Positions 8,488 to 62,637 of a stretch of 64,000 bases of DNA are shown here, piece after piece (position 1 is the first letter of the stretch; each line of letters opens with the position of its first letter). This DNA comes from Candidatus Nomurabacteria bacterium (GTDB lineage: Bacteria > Patescibacteriota > Minisyncoccia > Phycocordibacterales > UBA5272). The position numbers and the translations under genes are program-made. The notes beneath the pieces are model-generated. The model ran no database searches. It was not told the DNA's origin and saw only the letters and a list, made by a program, of their open reading frames with translations. Location: positions 26,896-90,895 of the forward strand of contig JBAXSC010000001.1 of assembly GCA_037130925.1 (NCBI GenBank). Direction: 5' to 3'.

Positions 8488-8498
8488 TTTTTATTTTT

Positions 8499-9989
<1,491 letters not shown>

Positions 9990-10157
9990 TGAAAAATCGT
10001 GCACACCGAATTCGGTGCATGCATTTGTCGAACAATCTTTATGGTTGTAAAAGTTTATTGAAACTCAAAATCAATCGAGCTACTTCGAGATGTAGAAAAA
10101 ATCGCGTGCACAAATGAGACAATCTTTATTGTCTCGCAGGATAAATCGCGTTGGAAG

Positions 10158-10204
10158 CGGAGCAAAAGAAAGTGGTATAATTTCTCTCTTTATAAATGTG
10201 TTAA
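10158..10204 (+). promoter_or_regulatory. Pre-16S trailer strand of the processing helix
   Basis: cggagcaaaagaa and taaatgtgttaa are complementary to the leader segments. Confidence 0.6.
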
Positions 10205-10287
10205 AAAACAAACTTAAAAAATGATTTAGGTATTTTTTGTTTTATTTGTAGTATAATTAAGACATTAATATAATAAGTTTAAATTCT

Positions 10288-11538
10288 ATGAAAAAATATT
10301 TTTTATCAGTATTGTTATTTGTGGTAGTTTTTGTTTTTAATATTTCTGTATCTAATGCACAATCTAATTGTGTAAATTTAAGAAATAATTTAAAAGTTGG
10401 TTCAAGAGATGTTTATACAAATGGAGAAGTTTCAGAGCTCCAAAGTTTTTTATATAGTAAAGGATATTTAAATACTAATCCAAGTGGATATTTTGGTCTT
10501 GCTACTAAAAGAGCAGTAATTATTTATCAGCAAAATAAAAATCTTTTTCCATCTGGATATGCTGGATCTTTAACAAGAAATGCTATTTATAATGATAGTT
10601 GTGGTTATATCCCAGTTCCGACACCAATTCCTACCCCAAACCCAAACCCAAACCCTGTTACTTATTACTGTAATTTAAATAATCAAACTTATTATAATTT
10701 AAATGATTACAATAATTATTGTAGATCTTCTTCTCTTCCAGATTATTTTGTTTCTATTTCTTTATATTCTACAAATTTATATAAAAATTTGTCGAAAAAT
10801 AATAGTGGATATTATGATTCAACAGGAGCTAATGGTAATGTAAATTTCACGATTGATACAGGTAATAACGCTTCTTGTTCGACTTATTGGAAAGGGCAAG
10901 GAGATAGTTCTTATTCTTTGATTTCAAGTAATAAAAATTTTTCACAAAGTTATGATAGTACTGTTTCAGGAATAGATTCCTATAAAGTATCTTGTGGCGA
11001 TGGTGTAAATTATAAAAATATCGATCAATATTTTTATGTTCAAACAAACCAGCAAACTAGCCAGTCTTACTATTGTAATTTAAATGGACAAACCTATTAT
11101 TCTCAAAATGATTACAATAATTATTGTAAAAGTAATACTGTGACTTATTGTGCTTTAAATACTGATTATCAAGCAGAGTCTCTTGTTATAGGAGGAGGTG
11201 CGAATTGTACTTGTCCTTCAGGATCTGTAATAACTTATAACTCTACAAGTTTCAGATGTGTATCACAAAATACTCAAAATATTTGTCCTACAGGTCAAGA
11301 TTTTTATGGTAGTAGTTATCAAAATTGCTCATGCCCTTCCAACTTTATTAAAGTTTCTTTGTCTGGTTCAATAAGTCCAGAATATTGGAAATATAGATGT
11401 ACTGCTCCAGTTACAACTTGCCCTATCACAAGTAATTATTTTTATGATTACGATTATCCGTCATGTGGTTGTCCTGGCGGATACACTAAAACTATGTCTA
11501 CTATGGTAGGTGGTCCAGGTCAATGGATTTGTAAATAA
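10288..11538 (+). CDS. Secreted Cys-rich protein with a peptidoglycan-binding domain
   Basis: Signal peptide. PG_binding_1-like segment (GEVSELQSFLYSKGYL...GYFGLATKRAVIIYQ). Duplicated YYCNLNxQTYYxxNDYNNYC module. Three C-terminal CxCPxG units. Confidence 0.6.
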   Translation: MKKYFLSVLLFVVVFVFNISVSNAQSNCVNLRNNLKVGSRDVYTNGEVSELQSFLYSKGYLNTNPSGYFGLATKRAVIIYQQNKNLFPSGYAGSLTRNAIYNDSCGYIPVPTPIPTPNPNPNPVTYYCNLNNQTYYNLNDYNNYCRSSSLPDYFVSISLYSTNLYKNLSKNNSGYYDSTGANGNVNFTIDTGNNASCSTYWKGQGDSSYSLISSNKNFSQSYDSTVSGIDSYKVSCGDGVNYKNIDQYFYVQTNQQTSQSYYCNLNGQTYYSQNDYNNYCKSNTVTYCALNTDYQAESLVIGGGANCTCPSGSVITYNSTSFRCVSQNTQNICPTGQDFYGSSYQNCSCPSNFIKVSLSGSISPEYWKYRCTAPVTTCPITSNYFYDYDYPSCGCPGGYTKTMSTMVGGPGQWICK

Positions 11539-11600
11539 TAAAAATATATATTTTTATTTAATTAATATTTAAGTTGTAATTTATATTGTATAATTTAAAT

Positions 11601-12017
11601 ATGCATTACAGTGATCAACTTATAAAGTACATAAAGAATCAGATAATTTATGGCACACCTGAAGAAGATATTCGTCAGGCCTTACTTGGTGTTGGTTGGA
11701 AAAAAGAAGATGTCGATGGAGCTTTTCAGATAGTTGCTGATCTTATAGATAAAGAAGATCTTGAAAAGATTTCTTCTAAAAAGATAAATTTTGCTATCAT
11801 TTTATCTATGATTCTTTTGTCTTTAATTATAATTACTGGATATATGACTTATTTAAAAGTTACAGATGTGAATATTCTTTATAAAGAAGTTGTAATTAAA
11901 AAAGAAAATCCTGCTCCAGTTAATCCAAATCTTAGTCAGCAGCAATATGTAGAAAGTCTTTATAATAAAATGAATCAGAAAAATAATTCTACTTCCTCTG
12001 TCAAAAAAAGTAATTAA
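11601..12017 (+). CDS. Hypothetical membrane protein
   Basis: Central TM helix. The ATG at 11601 lies 6 nt after a TGTATAAT box, so the TTG at 11586 is unlikely. Confidence 0.5.
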   Translation: MHYSDQLIKYIKNQIIYGTPEEDIRQALLGVGWKKEDVDGAFQIVADLIDKEDLEKISSKKINFAIILSMILLSLIIITGYMTYLKVTDVNILYKEVVIKKENPAPVNPNLSQQQYVESLYNKMNQKNNSTSSVKKSN

Positions 12018-12022
12018 TAAAA

Positions 12023-12553
12023 ATGATACAGGCTTTATTTAATATTTTTAGACAAAAATTTTATAGAAAAATATTTTTTATATTAAATTTAATTTTTTTA
12101 TTTTCGTATTTTTTCTTTACAAATTTTTTCTCAGCAATACAGATTTTTTTTGTGTCGATATTTTCTAAATCAGAGCAAGTGAATATATTTCTGAATTCTT
12201 TTTTTGATACCAGTTTGTTAAAAAGTATAACAATATTGATATTAGTGATATTATTTATTTTTTCTTTATCATTATTGTTTTTATTAGTTTATATTTTATT
12301 TAACGAAACAAAAAAGATTAATAAAAAAAGAAGTCTTTTAGGTTCTGTTGGGATTTTTATTTCAATACTTGGTTTATCTTGTGCGACTTGTGGAATTGGC
12401 CTATTGCCTTTTTTTTTGTCTTTATTTGGATTATCTGGATTAATAGTTTATTTTCCTTTACATGGGCTAGAATTTGGATATATAGGGGTCATTATTTTAA
12501 ATGTGACAAGTTTATTAATCTTAAAAAGGATAAGAAATCCTTTTATTTGTTAA
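12023..12553 (+). CDS. Hypothetical polytopic membrane protein with a CATCG motif
   Basis: 4-5 hydrophobic helices and an intramembrane CxxC. Confidence 0.45.
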   Translation: MIQALFNIFRQKFYRKIFFILNLIFLFSYFFFTNFFSAIQIFFVSIFSKSEQVNIFLNSFFDTSLLKSITILILVILFIFSLSLLFLLVYILFNETKKINKKRSLLGSVGIFISILGLSCATCGIGLLPFFLSLFGLSGLIVYFPLHGLEFGYIGVIILNVTSLLILKRIRNPFIC

Positions 12554-12616
12554 ATTAAAATAATTGCCCTTATTGAGTTTTTGTGATAAAATGTGTTCTA
12601 TCTTTAGAGGATGTTT

Positions 12617-12689
12617 GCGCGAATAGCTCAGCTGGTAGAGCACTCGACTGATACTCGAGCGGTCCTAAGTTCGAATCTTAGTTCGCGCA
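12617..12689 (+). tRNA. tRNA-Ile (anticodon GAU)
   Basis: Manual cloverleaf: acceptor gcgcgaa/ttcgcgc, D arm gctc-agctggta-gagc, anticodon arm ctcga-ctGATac-tcgag, T arm ctaag-ttcgaat-cttag. No encoded CCA. Confidence 0.9.
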
Positions 12690-12768
12690 CAAAATTGTGT
12701 CTATAAAAAAATAAAAACAGGTCAATCTTTCGATTAACCTGTTATTTAAATCTTTTAAGAATAAATTT

Positions 12769-13197
12769 TTAACAAATTTGTGGAATATTCATATTTAAAG
12801 CAATATGATCTTTCCAGAATTTTGTGTACATTTGATGTACTTTGATTACTTCTTGAGATTTATCTTCTATCATCTTTTTAAATGCTGCATCTTTTAATAT
12901 TAAGAATAAATGTATTTTTCCTAACATTATAACTTCGGCAATAAAAACCACTAGAAGATCTCCTGTACTTTCCTCTTCTACTTTGAATAGTTCTTCTAAG
13001 GAATTATGTCCAGGGAATTTATATTCATCATTACCAGACAACCTGAGTCTTTTAGACTCAAAAATCTCAACTGTATTTTTAAGTTTAAAACCATAGTTGT
13101 TTCTGTACTCTTCAGGAGAAAGAGGTTTTTGCATTTCAAGCAATCCGGAAGGATTTGCTTCTATTAGACTTTTAATACTTGCTTTTTGCTTTTCCAT
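12769..13197 (-). CDS. Hypothetical protein (ORFan) behind leader copy h
   Basis: ATG at 13197 (MEKQKASIK). The 15 upstream codons of the tracked ORF overlap the conserved leader hairpin and begin with TTG. Confidence 0.5.
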   Translation of the reverse strand: MEKQKASIKSLIEANPSGLLEMQKPLSPEEYRNNYGFKLKNTVEIFESKRLRLSGNDEYKFPGHNSLEELFKVEEESTGDLLVVFIAEVIMLGKIHLFLILKDAAFKKMIEDKSQEVIKVHQMYTKFWKDHIALNMNIPQIC

Positions 13198-13330
13198 TTT
13201 AAAATTTTTTGATTGTTTGTGAATTTGATTAACTTCTTTCAATTTCTATCAAGAAACTAAGAGAAGCTAATAAATAAAACAATTAAAATACGACTATATA
13301 TAATATATCATACTAAATATTATGTGTCAA
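13198..13330 (-). promoter_or_regulatory. Promoter plus structured leader module, copy h
   Basis: Minus-sense TTGACA - 17 nt - TATATT. Hairpin 13228-13271 has the loop tagtttcttgatagaaattg, identical to copy c. Outer helix attgttt/aaacaat. Confidence 0.6.
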
Positions 13331-13393
13331 TGATTATTCATAAAATCAATTAAGATCAACCTATATATTGTTTCAAACAGTTATTTTTTTAAT

Positions 13394-13654
13394 TTAACTG
13401 TTACTAATTTCTTCAAAGTCAGTCGGTAAAACTTTATTCTTTGGTGCAAATATCCAAAGTGTAATATATAGAAATGCGATAATTGGATGTAGAAAATCTA
13501 TATTATCAAAATTACTAGATATTGCAATAATAATTACTATTATTGCCCGGACTAGCCATGTTGGAGTTTTGGTTTGATATGCCACACCTACACAAACTCC
13601 TCCAATCCAACTTCCTTCTTCGAAACGGCGAAATTTTTTTATTTTTTCAAACAT
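13394..13654 (-). CDS. PspC domain-containing membrane protein
   Basis: FRRFEEGSWIGGVCVGVAYQTKTPTWLVRAIIVI matches the PspC N-terminal domain pattern. Confidence 0.6.
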   Translation of the reverse strand: MFEKIKKFRRFEEGSWIGGVCVGVAYQTKTPTWLVRAIIVIIIAISSNFDNIDFLHPIIAFLYITLWIFAPKNKVLPTDFEEISNS

Positions 13655-13789
13655 TTTTAATAAATTTAATTTGTGAAAAATTCTAATAATAATTTATCAT
13701 ATAAAAGTATATGTGTCAATTGTTTTTTATAAATAAAAAACGGCTATAGATTTTTAGTTTATAACCGTTTTGTTTCAATTCGAACATTT

Positions 13790-14170
13790 TTATTTTCCAA
13801 GCCATAATACCCATTGAGAAGTTTTAGGTTTTTTCTTTTTGTGTAAAATATAATTTTTTTGAGGAGCTATGTCAGCCAGTCTTTTTTTGAAAGCAGCTAC
13901 AGATTCCTCTGGAATTATATAAACATTTAAAGGTTTCCCTTTGTAAAAAATTCTTGTACATTCACTGAACAAGCTATTTCTTGTAAGGTATTCAGCAATG
14001 TTTTGTTGAAGGGTCGGGTCTGTGGCAAATATTGCCCAGTCCTGCTCATAAAAACTTTTTGGAACCGGTGGAGTTGTGTTTCTCCCTCTTCCTGGTAATT
14101 TTTTTAATAATTCTTCAGAAGAAAGATTATTAATTTCTGTAATGTCTTTTTTTAAATTAATTTTACTCAT
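13790..14170 (-). CDS. Hypothetical protein
   Basis: ORF with its own TTGCAT - 16 nt - TAGAAT promoter upstream on the minus strand. No recognised domain. Confidence 0.45.
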   Translation of the reverse strand: MSKINLKKDITEINNLSSEELLKKLPGRGRNTTPPVPKSFYEQDWAIFATDPTLQQNIAEYLTRNSLFSECTRIFYKGKPLNVYIIPEESVAAFKKRLADIAPQKNYILHKKKKPKTSQWVLWLGK

Positions 14171-14256
14171 TGTTTATATATTTATTAGTGAAAAATATTT
14201 TGAAAGGACGAGTTTCTATTCTACAACTTTTTTAGAAAAATGCAAGATACAAAATA

Positions 14257-14327
14257 AACCCTTCCTCCTCCTAACTCTGTTCGGAGGTTTCCTTCCCTAA
14301 AATTTAGGGAAGGATTAAGGATGGGTT
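14257..14327. ncRNA. Candidate structured RNA: GC-rich three-helix junction (strand unresolved)
   Basis: P1 aacccttcct/aggatgggtt (9 of 10 bp). P2 cctcc/ggagg with an 11-nt loop. P3 ccttcccta(a)/(t)tagggaagg. Lies between divergent genes. Confidence 0.35.
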
Positions 14328-14364
14328 CTGGCTTATTTTATGATAAAATTATTTTACTAATTAT

Positions 14365-15525
14365 ATGAAGATTTTTGATTTTGCCAGGAAAATAAAGAAT
14401 GAATTTTTTAAATATGAGAATTCTGTTGAAGTTTTCATTTCAGAAGAAAACCTTTTACATAATTTAAATGAATATAAAAATAAATACAAAGATATTTCTT
14501 TTGCTCCAGTTTTGAAAAGTAATGCATACGGTCACGGTTTACTAGAAGTTGCAGAAATTCTAGATAAAGAAAATCTTCCATTCTTTGTAGTTGATTCACT
14601 TTATGAAGCTCGTCTTTTAAAATTAAATTCTATTAAAAAAGATATTTTAATTATTGGATATACAAGATTAGAAAATATTAAAATTTTTAATTCCTCACAA
14701 TTTATTTTTACTGTTATAAGTTTAGATGAACTTAAAAATCTTTCTAAAAATTTTTCAAAGAAAATTAGAATTCATTTGAAAATAGATACAGGGATGCATA
14801 GACAGGGAATTATGATAAATGAGATAGAGGAGGCTATGGATATTTTAAAAGAAAATAAGAATTTTATTTTAGAAGGGATTTGTTCTCATTTTGCCGATGC
14901 AGATAGTCAAGACAAATCTTTCACAGAATCACAAATAGAAAATTGGAAAAAAGTTGTAGAAAAATTTAAAAATAGTTTTGAAACTATAAAATATCTTCAT
15001 ACTTCTGCGACAGCTGGATCTTTTTATAATCAAAAAGATTTTGGAAATGTTATTCGTCTTGGGATAGGTATCTATGGGGTAAACACTTCTCCTTTTTCAG
15101 ATTTAAATTTAAAGCCAGTCATGAAAATTGAAGCAATAATTTCTTCTGTTAGAAATTTAAAGAAAGGCGAGAGTGTTGGATATGGTCATACTTTGACTTT
15201 AGAAAAAGATTCTAAAGTTGCAACTATTACTATGGGATATTTTGAGGGAGTTGACCGTAGACTTTCAAATCTCGCTCATTTTAAAATTGGAAATAATTTT
15301 TGTAAAGTTTTAGGAAGAGTGAGTATGAATATGTCATCAATAGATGTGACAGATTTAGATATTAAGTTAGAAGATAAGGTTATAATTTTGAGTGAAAAGA
15401 AAGAAGATTTAAATTCTTTAGTAAATTTGGCAAAACTAGCAAATACTATTCCATATGATATATTGGTGCATATAATGCCTCATTTAAAAAGAAAAGTCTT
15501 AAAGAGTTTTAATAATATTAATTAA
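14365..15525 (+). CDS. alr: Alanine racemase
   Basis: PVLKSNAYGHG PLP-lysine motif and typical length. Confidence 0.9.
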   Translation: MKIFDFARKIKNEFFKYENSVEVFISEENLLHNLNEYKNKYKDISFAPVLKSNAYGHGLLEVAEILDKENLPFFVVDSLYEARLLKLNSIKKDILIIGYTRLENIKIFNSSQFIFTVISLDELKNLSKNFSKKIRIHLKIDTGMHRQGIMINEIEEAMDILKENKNFILEGICSHFADADSQDKSFTESQIENWKKVVEKFKNSFETIKYLHTSATAGSFYNQKDFGNVIRLGIGIYGVNTSPFSDLNLKPVMKIEAIISSVRNLKKGESVGYGHTLTLEKDSKVATITMGYFEGVDRRLSNLAHFKIGNNFCKVLGRVSMNMSSIDVTDLDIKLEDKVIILSEKKEDLNSLVNLAKLANTIPYDILVHIMPHLKRKVLKSFNNIN

Positions 15526-18668: not shown

Positions 18669-18738
18669 TTTTTCACTTTGCATTCTATAATATTTTTTGC
18701 TATAATTATACTCATCAATTTGATTGATAATAGAATAT

Positions 18739-18790
18739 TCCGTATTAGCTCAGCGGTAAAAAGAATATAGACAGTTGGCTCAGCCAATAT
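18739..18790 (+). pseudogene. Degenerate duplicate of the 5' half of tRNA-Asn
   Basis: tccgtattagctcagcggta and cagttggct match the tRNA-Asn 5' half, interrupted by aaaagaatataga. No T arm. The 5-nt upstream flank aatat is also duplicated. Confidence 0.45.
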
Positions 18791-18835
18791 AAATATAGAT
18801 CTTTTTAAAAATGAGTTAGTTTTTAAACAAAATAT

Positions 18836-18910
18836 TCCGTGGTAGCTCAGCGGTAGAGCAGTTGGCTGTTAACCAATTGGTCGTAGGTTCGATCCCTACC
18901 CACGGAGCCA
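18836..18910 (+). tRNA. tRNA-Asn (anticodon GUU), CCA encoded
   Basis: Acceptor tccgtgg/ccacgga, anticodon arm gttgg-ctGTTaa-ccaat, T arm gtagg-ttcgatc-cctac, then gcca. Confidence 0.9.
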
Positions 18911-62577: not shown

Positions 62578-62631
62578 GAGAGGAGGTCAAACAAAGGTAA
62601 TAGGCAAGTTGCTGTTTACTGATCTCCTCTC
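62578..62631 (+). other. GC-rich 11-bp hairpin forming the 5' leader of the tRNA-Leu precursor
   Basis: gagaggaggtc/gatctcctctc. Starts about 7 nt after the TATTAT -10 (TTGAGT - 17 nt - TATTAT) and ends 6 nt before the tRNA. Confidence 0.45.
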
Positions 62632-62637
62632 TTTTAT

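Follow-up and report, generated by a model that had tools for sequence, protein, structure and literature searches.

The window analysed here (i.e., the whole stretch of 64,000 nt, in which all positions are given) contains a compact, structured element in the spacer between two divergent genes, one for alanine racemase (alr) and the other for an orphan protein (Table 1). The element is flanked on each side by a conserved box. That on the side of the orphan gene begins 10 nt from the element, and relatives that carry the element and relatives that lack it alike conserve its two hexamers, whilst the spacer between these varies; that on the side of alr lies 11 nt past the element. Conservation of this kind suggests that both boxes act as promoters, and it places the element upstream of the two, as the initial annotation had proposed. 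Since it lies upstream of both promoters, it is not a terminator or UTR element of either gene, and that part of the annotation holds as well.

Table 1. Coordinates of the features at the orphan gene-alr locus; a dot in the strand column marks a feature without assigned strand.
Feature	Position	Strand	Details
Orphan gene, fast-evolving, 126 aa (NCBI WCO35_00205)	13790..14170	-	
Putative orphan-gene promoter	14218..14245	-	-35 TTGCAT (14245..14240), 16-nt spacer, -10 TAGAAT (14223..14218)
Repeat unit	14256..14329	.	covariance model R1: 97.6 bits, E 4.5e-27
P1 5' strand AACCCTTCCT	14257..14266	.	pairs with 14318-14327
P2 hairpin CCTCCTAAC-TCT-GTTCGGAGG	14267..14287	.	8 pairs and one U.C mismatch
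P3 hairpin TCCTTCCCTAA-AAT-TTAGGGAAGGA	14290..14314	.	conserved family core CCYTCCCTAA-loop-TTAGGGARGG
P1 3' strand AGGATGGGTT	14318..14327	.	pairs with 14257-14266
Putative alr extended -10 TGATAAAAT	14341..14349	+	invariant in 6/6 aligned sequences
Alanine racemase gene (alr)	14365..15525	+	

A clean insertion at the alr locus

The alr loci of graded relatives were collected via the Alr protein. Where Alr is 93, 87 and 83% identical, the intergenic flanks align with those of the window and leave one gap, exactly over the element; where it is 75, 74, 64 and 63% identical, the covariance model found no element in 48 kb. The homology search in relatives that had been suggested as a check found all seven closer relatives to have the flanking divergent promoters but not the element, and among close relatives the insertion is confined to the lineage of the window. 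From GCAAG to TTTATG, empty sites measure 16 nt, as against 9 + 74 + 7 nt in the window, so the insertion is a clean addition of 74 nt with no target-site duplication; no repeated flank was seen in any of 15 copies either. The insertion site is the gap of roughly 24 bp between the back-to-back promoters of the orphan gene and alr. A copy sits at the matching position upstream of alr in contig L031 of the Patescibacteria MAG JAUPLJ01, whose Alr is only 60% identical to that of the window. For a mobile repeat this occupied site is a difficulty, as seven closer relatives are empty; it would call for a preferred site, for precise loss on repeated occasions or for recombination.

The orphan gene has its own history, of either very fast evolution or replacement. 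Its product is 25-30% identical to its positional counterparts in relatives where Alr is 83-93% identical, 44-46% identical to a protein (P0002) of contig L002 and, by eye, similarly near to a protein of 161 aa in L031; no Pfam domain is present in it, and 5.8 billion proteins include one homologue only. The idea that the element is a companion of this gene was dropped, as L002, the contig with the only detectable homologue, is without it. Transfer of the two as one block was rejected because the promoter between element and gene is of the native type common to close relatives. The whole stretch from tRNA-Ile to alr (12690-14170) is variable among close relatives: the window has extra minus-strand genes there (a 157-aa ORF, 12769-13242, and one for a PspC-domain protein, 13394-13654), L003 has the orphan gene only, and L007 has a MazG-like gene.

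Some other features of the window are worth recording. In the region 8492-12690, the 16S has no 23S after it, nor has it one elsewhere in the window, and the tRNA-Ile(GAT) lies 2.6 kb downstream; three protein ORFs (10288-12553) between the two, with no 23S, indicate that the rRNA operon is split. The intact tRNA-Asn(GTT) at 18836-18910 is preceded, at a distance of about 100 nt, by a decayed partial duplicate of tRNA-Asn (18737-18800; TTCCGTATTAGCTCAGCGGTA... then ...CAGTTGGCTCAGCCAAT). Directly upstream of tRNA-Leu(TAG), a GC-rich hairpin formed over a long range (GAGAGGAG...CTCCTCTC, 62578-62637) and continued by TTTTAT looks like a terminator or processing structure.

Fold of the repeat unit and its conservation

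The borders of the complete unit were set by the alignment of 12 copies with unrelated flanks, together with the empty sites in relatives. They enclose 74 nt which, in the plus-strand sense of the covariance model, run from AAACCC to GGGTTCT. The element is not an assembly artefact, since the identical sequence is present in a Logan assembly (L001) that was made independently from the source sample. Its GC content is 0.37-0.38 in 100-nt windows, with a maximum of 0.47 in 70-nt windows, as opposed to 0.28 for the whole window. On both strands the structure of minimum free energy is the same three-way junction of P1, P2 and P3, at -35.2 kcal/mol as RNA (z -4.3, with 1 of 200 shuffles as good) and at -36.8 kcal/mol for the other strand (z -4.5, 0/200); folded as single-stranded DNA, the two strands reach -21.1 and -22.2 kcal/mol, with z about -6.

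The three helices of the initial annotation, coordinates included, all match the sequence, and the fold beats its shuffles. P1, the terminal helix, pairs at 9 of 10 positions with a single T.T mismatch, and in P3 the strands CCTTCCCTAA and TTAGGGAAGG bring 14290/91-14300 together with 14304-14313/14. P2 had been described as a CCTCC/GGAGG stem with an 11-nt loop; the stem is right, but the loop is not open, since AAC and GUU pair inside it and extend the helix to nine positions closed by a UCU triloop. P2 is the variable module of the repeat family. In the family consensus it is a perfect 9-bp helix, and the replacement of CGC/GCG in the consensus by AAC/GUU in the copy of the window amounts to two compensatory changes.

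The same holds across the family. Among 15 copies from Patescibacteria, paired cells make up 95.6% and both partners have changed in 12 of the 28 pairs; over 20 rows that include distant members the figures are 96.1% and 19 of 28 (with 0/500 shuffles reaching them in either case), all from alignments fitted to a covariance model, which biases them toward structure; slid controls on the 20-row alignment are 39-65% paired. P3 is 99.5% paired over the 20 aligned rows, all nine pairs of P2 have changed on both sides across the family, and P1 persists through subfamilies in which both of its strands have changed. In addition, the subfamily sequences of the diverged JAUPLJ01 copies adopt the same shape when folded alone. 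Judging from the alignments, then, the three helices are maintained through compensatory changes. As to other properties of the units, they have stop codons in all three frames of both strands, and many variants (e.g., L072 6707-6770) have a canonical G-quadruplex motif of four tracts, GGGAGGGGACGGGGGTGGG, as their 3' half and its C-rich complement as their 5' half.

No known RNA family had been recognised in the element, and Rfam agrees: at the gathering threshold the whole window yields only the 16S and four tRNAs, a permissive scan of 14100-14450 (E<=10) gives chance-level matches only, of 16 bits or less, and 14 other loci with variant copies give tRNAs only at the gathering threshold. ARAGORN finds nothing at the element. 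The CCUCCUCC tract had been thought notable because the 16S lacks it. The 16S indeed lacks it, as its 3' end past helix 45 (9940-9989 of a gene at 8492-9989) reads ...GGTCGTAGATTAATTCAATT, with no CCUCC anti-Shine-Dalgarno (SD) sequence, but the connection with the tract falls away: the latter is merely the 5' strand of P2, and sister subfamilies carry unrelated sequence in its place (AAUGC, GAAAAUUUU, AGCUCC). GGAG, GAGG or AGGA occur at -20..-4 of 1 of 60 ORFs in the window, and an SD motif precedes 2 of 39 and 1 of 19 genes at other repeat-bearing MAG loci, against a background of 8.5%, so that translation initiation appears to be SD-independent. A ribosome-binding or anti-SD role of the GGAGGAGG/CCUCCUCC tract was rejected because the hosts do not use SD sequences and the 16S has no CCUCC; sister subfamilies also do without GGAGG/CCUCC.

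Other roles were considered and set aside. An intrinsic terminator is contradicted by a scan that called no terminator-like site, by the position between divergent 5' ends and by the 3' flanks of other copies, which are A-rich when read in the usual sense of the genes; the minus-sense tail GGGUUUAUUUUG, which had seemed terminator-like, turned out to be local flank outside the unit, and other copies continue A-rich. A riboswitch or cis leader of alr is contradicted by the position upstream of the extended -10 of that gene and by the absence of the element in relatives (Alr 93-63% identical). The core sites of integron attC sites, R''/R' RYYYAAC ... GTTRRRY, stand at the base of the folded strand; by inspection, the ends AAACCC and GGGTTCT have AAC/GTT on the outer and not the inner side, and the element was not taken as an attC site.

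Dispersed copies and their placement

A degenerate pattern of the P2 3' strand and P3, scanned against one genome per GTDB species, gave 34 loci, among them 8 copies on 8 contigs of JAUPLJ01 and 4 loci in MAGs labelled Saccharibacteria. In total JAUPLJ01 has at least 11 copies, and further copies are found in three more MAGs. The copies have sharp common ends (AAACCC...GGGTTCT) and unrelated flanks; the copy of the window is 89% identical to their consensus, AAACCCTACCTCCTCCTCGCTCTGCGAGGAGGTCTCCTTCCCTAAATATTTAGGGAAGGATTAAGGATGGGTTCT, and 87-92% identical to the copies in the MAGs labelled Saccharibacteria. A cmsearch with model R1 added three strongly diverged copies of JAUPLJ01 (L008:1981, L008:736 and L040:5096), in which the P1-P2-P3 architecture is kept whilst the stem sequences differ. 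A small independent RNA or regulator specific to this locus is very unlikely given this distribution, with the element absent from the closer relatives examined and present at unrelated loci elsewhere; in practical terms, the alr locus has neither an alr riboswitch nor a dedicated sRNA. It had also been foreseen that the segment might prove to be a fragment of a decayed gene or repeat. A repeat it is, though not a decayed one, as the copy has the make-up of an intact, dispersed mobile element. The window itself has no second copy by pattern search, blastn-short or model R1, and a single copy in 64 kb counts against a mobile repeat.

In JAUPLJ01 and the MAGs labelled Saccharibacteria, copies fill the short spacers of housekeeping operons, as in ABC ATPase-[el]-nusA-[el]-tig-[el], rplO-[el]-secY, holB-[el]-frr, [el]-thrS, [el]-nusG, ssb-[el]...[el]-ndk and [el]-mltG (where [el] stands for a copy). 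They begin 2-13 nt past the upstream stop, once providing the stop itself, and typically end 8-28 nt ahead of the next start. The copy of the window and that of L031, both between divergent genes, are the exceptions to this placement. Of 13 copies between co-directional genes, 12 share one orientation; at these 12 loci the genes are read against the model sense, so the transcribed sense corresponds to the minus strand of the window. This strand bias could equally stem from selection at the RNA level.

Turnover is visible at nusA. In a genome (L077) whose NusA is 87% identical to that of JAUPLJ01, the site upstream of nusA is empty where JAUPLJ01 has a copy, and the nusA-tig spacer has a different subtype in the opposite orientation, the one exception among the 13 copies; a further lineage (NusA 83% identical) shows none in 66 kb. 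Few spacers can tolerate insertion in genomes this compact, and repeated occupation of one spacer does not necessarily imply targeting by sequence. Two results count against a mobile repeat. The flanks of the copies are merely A/T-rich and share no conserved target motif. Among the neighbours examined (stretches of 3-20 kb around copies) there is no transposase, RAYT or other partner gene, but ordinary housekeeping and metabolic genes, and searches of IMG/VR, INPHARED and PLSDB gave no matches that would indicate carriage by phages or plasmids. The literature searched, sequence strings included, yielded no description of such repeats in CPR/Patescibacteria, Saccharibacteria or Parcubacteria; the family is apparently undescribed so far.

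Kin of the repeat extend further. The exact A-type P3 had 0 matches in JGI metagenome contigs, and the family-level pattern gave 24 loci there, with three-way junction, plain-hairpin and modular 113-nt variants, all of which have (T/A)AACCC...GGGTTA as their ends and CCCTCCCTAA-N4-TTAGGGAGGG as their core. Only with read-through of UGA do eight of these loci (L054, L055, L057, L065, L068, L071, L074 and L076) become about 90% coding, the coding density then rising from 0.0-0.33 to 0.84-0.98. In L057 (1850-5385) UGA stands at invariant Gly residues of HtpG and EngA (as in DNGI[G]M, GRPNV[G]KS), which indicates genetic code 25, as used by Gracilibacteria and Absconditabacteria. The marine loci with code 11 are from Balneola, by the names of exact-protein clusters, and have ordinary metabolic genes as neighbours, one with a Por_Secre_tail domain. 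Orientation is mixed in both the Balneola and the code-25 variants. The 113-nt form consists of the 53-nt hairpin of L064 with an inserted module of 60 nt, so the family is modular.

One Balneola spacer, upstream of a Zn-dehydrogenase gene (L056 3050-4345), has several repeat families packed into it, with three element copies (62 and 113 nt) and reiterated ...CCTCTGTGGTTAAAAC... motifs. The GTDB scan also brought up a multi-copy look-alike, AATCCCTTCCGTCTCCTCCGCAGCTAGCGGAGGATCCACCTTCCCTTATCCAAGGGAAGGAGCCCTTG, in Arenibacter spp. (L013, L015, L017-L019, L027, L030, L032 and L037) and Ulvibacterium (L039). It has hairpins like P2 and P3 and a 5' AACCCTTCC, but lacks the 3' GGGTT end, and was not counted as a member.

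A probable mobile repeat, its alternatives and its known counterparts

Taken together, these results make it probable that 14256-14329 is a lone copy of an interspersed structured repeat that is non-autonomous and spreads horizontally, kin in kind to REP, MITE and PATE elements. A trans-acting enzyme that recognises the folded single strand would move it, the candidates being a peel-and-paste mechanism of the HUH/Y1 type, as in IS200/IS605 and REP-RAYT systems, or another route. Insertion would be precise, and excision possibly so too, leaving no scar. At the alr locus the element would be a passenger outside both transcription units, and its effect there is probably to push the divergent promoters 74 bp apart and most likely nothing more.

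The repeat could be mobile and yet have a function as a cis-acting RNA, its three-way junction serving as a 5' or intercistronic stabiliser, a processing signal or an insulator in hosts without SD sequences, with an extended leader of the orphan gene at the alr locus, read from a weak -10-like box upstream. The uniform orientation between co-directional genes would fit this, as would the residence in housekeeping operons (rplO-secY, nusA-tig, frr, thrS, nusG, ndk), the compensatory changes that preserve the structure, the TGnTATAAT boxes just upstream of the L024, L028 and L029 copies and likewise of the copy of the window (CATAAAAT), and the orientation of the latter with its downstream minus-strand gene and not with the plus-strand majority of genes in the window. 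However, in both the window and L031 a conserved promoter stands between element and gene, which leaves the element outside the known transcription unit. The related copy of L077 has the opposite orientation at the identical junction, the Balneola and code-25 variants show no fixed orientation, and close relatives manage without the element at the same sites. Moreover, a quasi-palindrome would stabilise an RNA either way round, and counts of G-U against A-C pairs give no consistent strand signal: they stand at 4 vs 4 in the Patescibacteria set, and at 17 vs 5 in the broad set, where the excess favours the opposite sense and is driven by one Balneola subfamily. On balance, we consider such a function rather unlikely.

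Much less probable still is an independent sRNA gene on the minus strand, with a promoter CTGGCA-16-TATAAT (14387..14360, in the alr start region) and an RNA of about 100 nt ending at GGGUUUAUUUUG. The promoter-like sequence matches at 10 of 12 positions, a U-rich run follows P1 in the copy of the window and in L031, and the fold is stable. Yet such matches are commonplace in this AT-rich region (10 vs 4.7 +/- 2.0 in shuffles), the -35 relies on a base specific to the window, and the -10 is the complement of the conserved start context of alr. The U-run lies outside the unit and gives way to A-rich 3' flanks in other copies, the terminator scan called none, and the supposed gene is absent from all close relatives and elsewhere embedded in operons without promoters of its own. 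A role at the DNA level, in which P3, a perfect 10-3-10 palindrome, would serve the divergent promoters as an operator, or the cruciform as an insulator, is suggested by the near-perfect palindromy of P3 and by the position of the element exactly between back-to-back promoters, 10 nt from a -35 and 11 nt from an extended -10. We regard it as the least probable of these readings, since the same sequence recurs next to unrelated genes, for the most part within operons and away from promoters, relatives with the same conserved promoters do without the element, and no regulator gene is associated with it.

If the mobile-repeat interpretation is correct, a short structured repeat has invaded the spacers of essential operons in Patescibacteria (CPR), whose genomes are small, tightly packed and usually described as poor in mobile DNA. 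It is near-identical in a Nomurabacteria MAG, a related Patescibacteria MAG and MAGs labelled Saccharibacteria, with kin in UGA-recoded lineages and in Balneola, and would therefore be a marker of horizontal exchange among episymbionts. In motif screens of AT-rich MAGs it is also likely to give rise to false calls of 'novel ncRNA', and it is a possible handle on a mobilisation enzyme, or on mRNA processing in bacteria without SD sequences. It is tempting to speculate, though the odds are against it, that SD-less Patescibacteria have recruited these repeats as RNA 'punctuation' in core operons (rplO-secY, nusA-tig, frr, thrS, ndk), shaping mRNA ends or stability, and that the repeats reached different classes and Balneola by a single-stranded nucleic acid route that recognises the three-way junction and matches no described transposition scheme.

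Among known mobile repeats, the REP/BIME/REPIN-RAYT group is similar in being short, extragenic, GC-rich, self-complementary and dispersed, often co-transcribed inside operons, in making no target duplication, and in keeping structure over sequence between families. REPs are single imperfect palindromes of 20-40 nt with a conserved 5' tetranucleotide of the GTAG type, and REPINs are inverted doublets of one REP. The present unit, in contrast, is a three-way junction of 74-75 nt with two different hairpins and a terminal helix, has no GTAG, and ranges over classes of Patescibacteria and Balneola.

Organellar palindromic selfish repeats and double-hairpin elements are the only analogues found in the literature searched (PMC2670323, PMC5910586). 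Like the present repeat, the GC clusters of organelles, the double-hairpin elements and the Rickettsia palindromic elements are GC-rich hairpins in AT-rich spacers of compact genomes and apparently selfish, and double-hairpin elements have, in addition, two adjacent hairpins. Their hosts, however, are mitochondria, plastids and Rickettsia and their sequences are unrelated, so the likeness is one of analogy only.

Bacterial MITEs (Correia/NEMIS of Neisseria, RUP and BOX of Streptococcus pneumoniae, ERIC) resemble the repeat in being non-autonomous and shorter than 200 nt, with terminal inverted repeats, insertion near genes, co-transcription, stable RNA folds and a lineage-specific distribution over filled and empty sites. 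Here AACCCTWCCT and AGGATGGGTT form the terminal repeats as P1, complementary ends recur in all subfamilies, and the copies are dispersed among unrelated flanks and polymorphic between filled and empty sites. MITEs derived from DDE elements make target-site duplications (TA for Correia and RUP), whilst the alr site shows none; we know of no parent IS with ends matching those of the repeat. PATEs derived from IS200/IS605 are alike in the lack of target duplication, in hairpins near both ends (P2 and P3 could serve as LE and RE), in strand-biased insertion (12/13 here) and in possible precise excision. The ends of IS200/IS605 elements are not inverted repeats, and insertion takes place 3' of a fixed tetra- or pentanucleotide; the termini of the present repeat pair as P1 and its flanks show no common motif. 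Given an inverted repeat unlike IS200/IS605 and a lack of duplication unlike DDE-derived MITEs, neither scheme fits cleanly. The best-supported description is that of a mobile repeat which combines the terminal complementarity of MITEs, the duplication-free and strand-biased insertion of IS200/IS605, PATE and REP elements, and two unlike hairpins.
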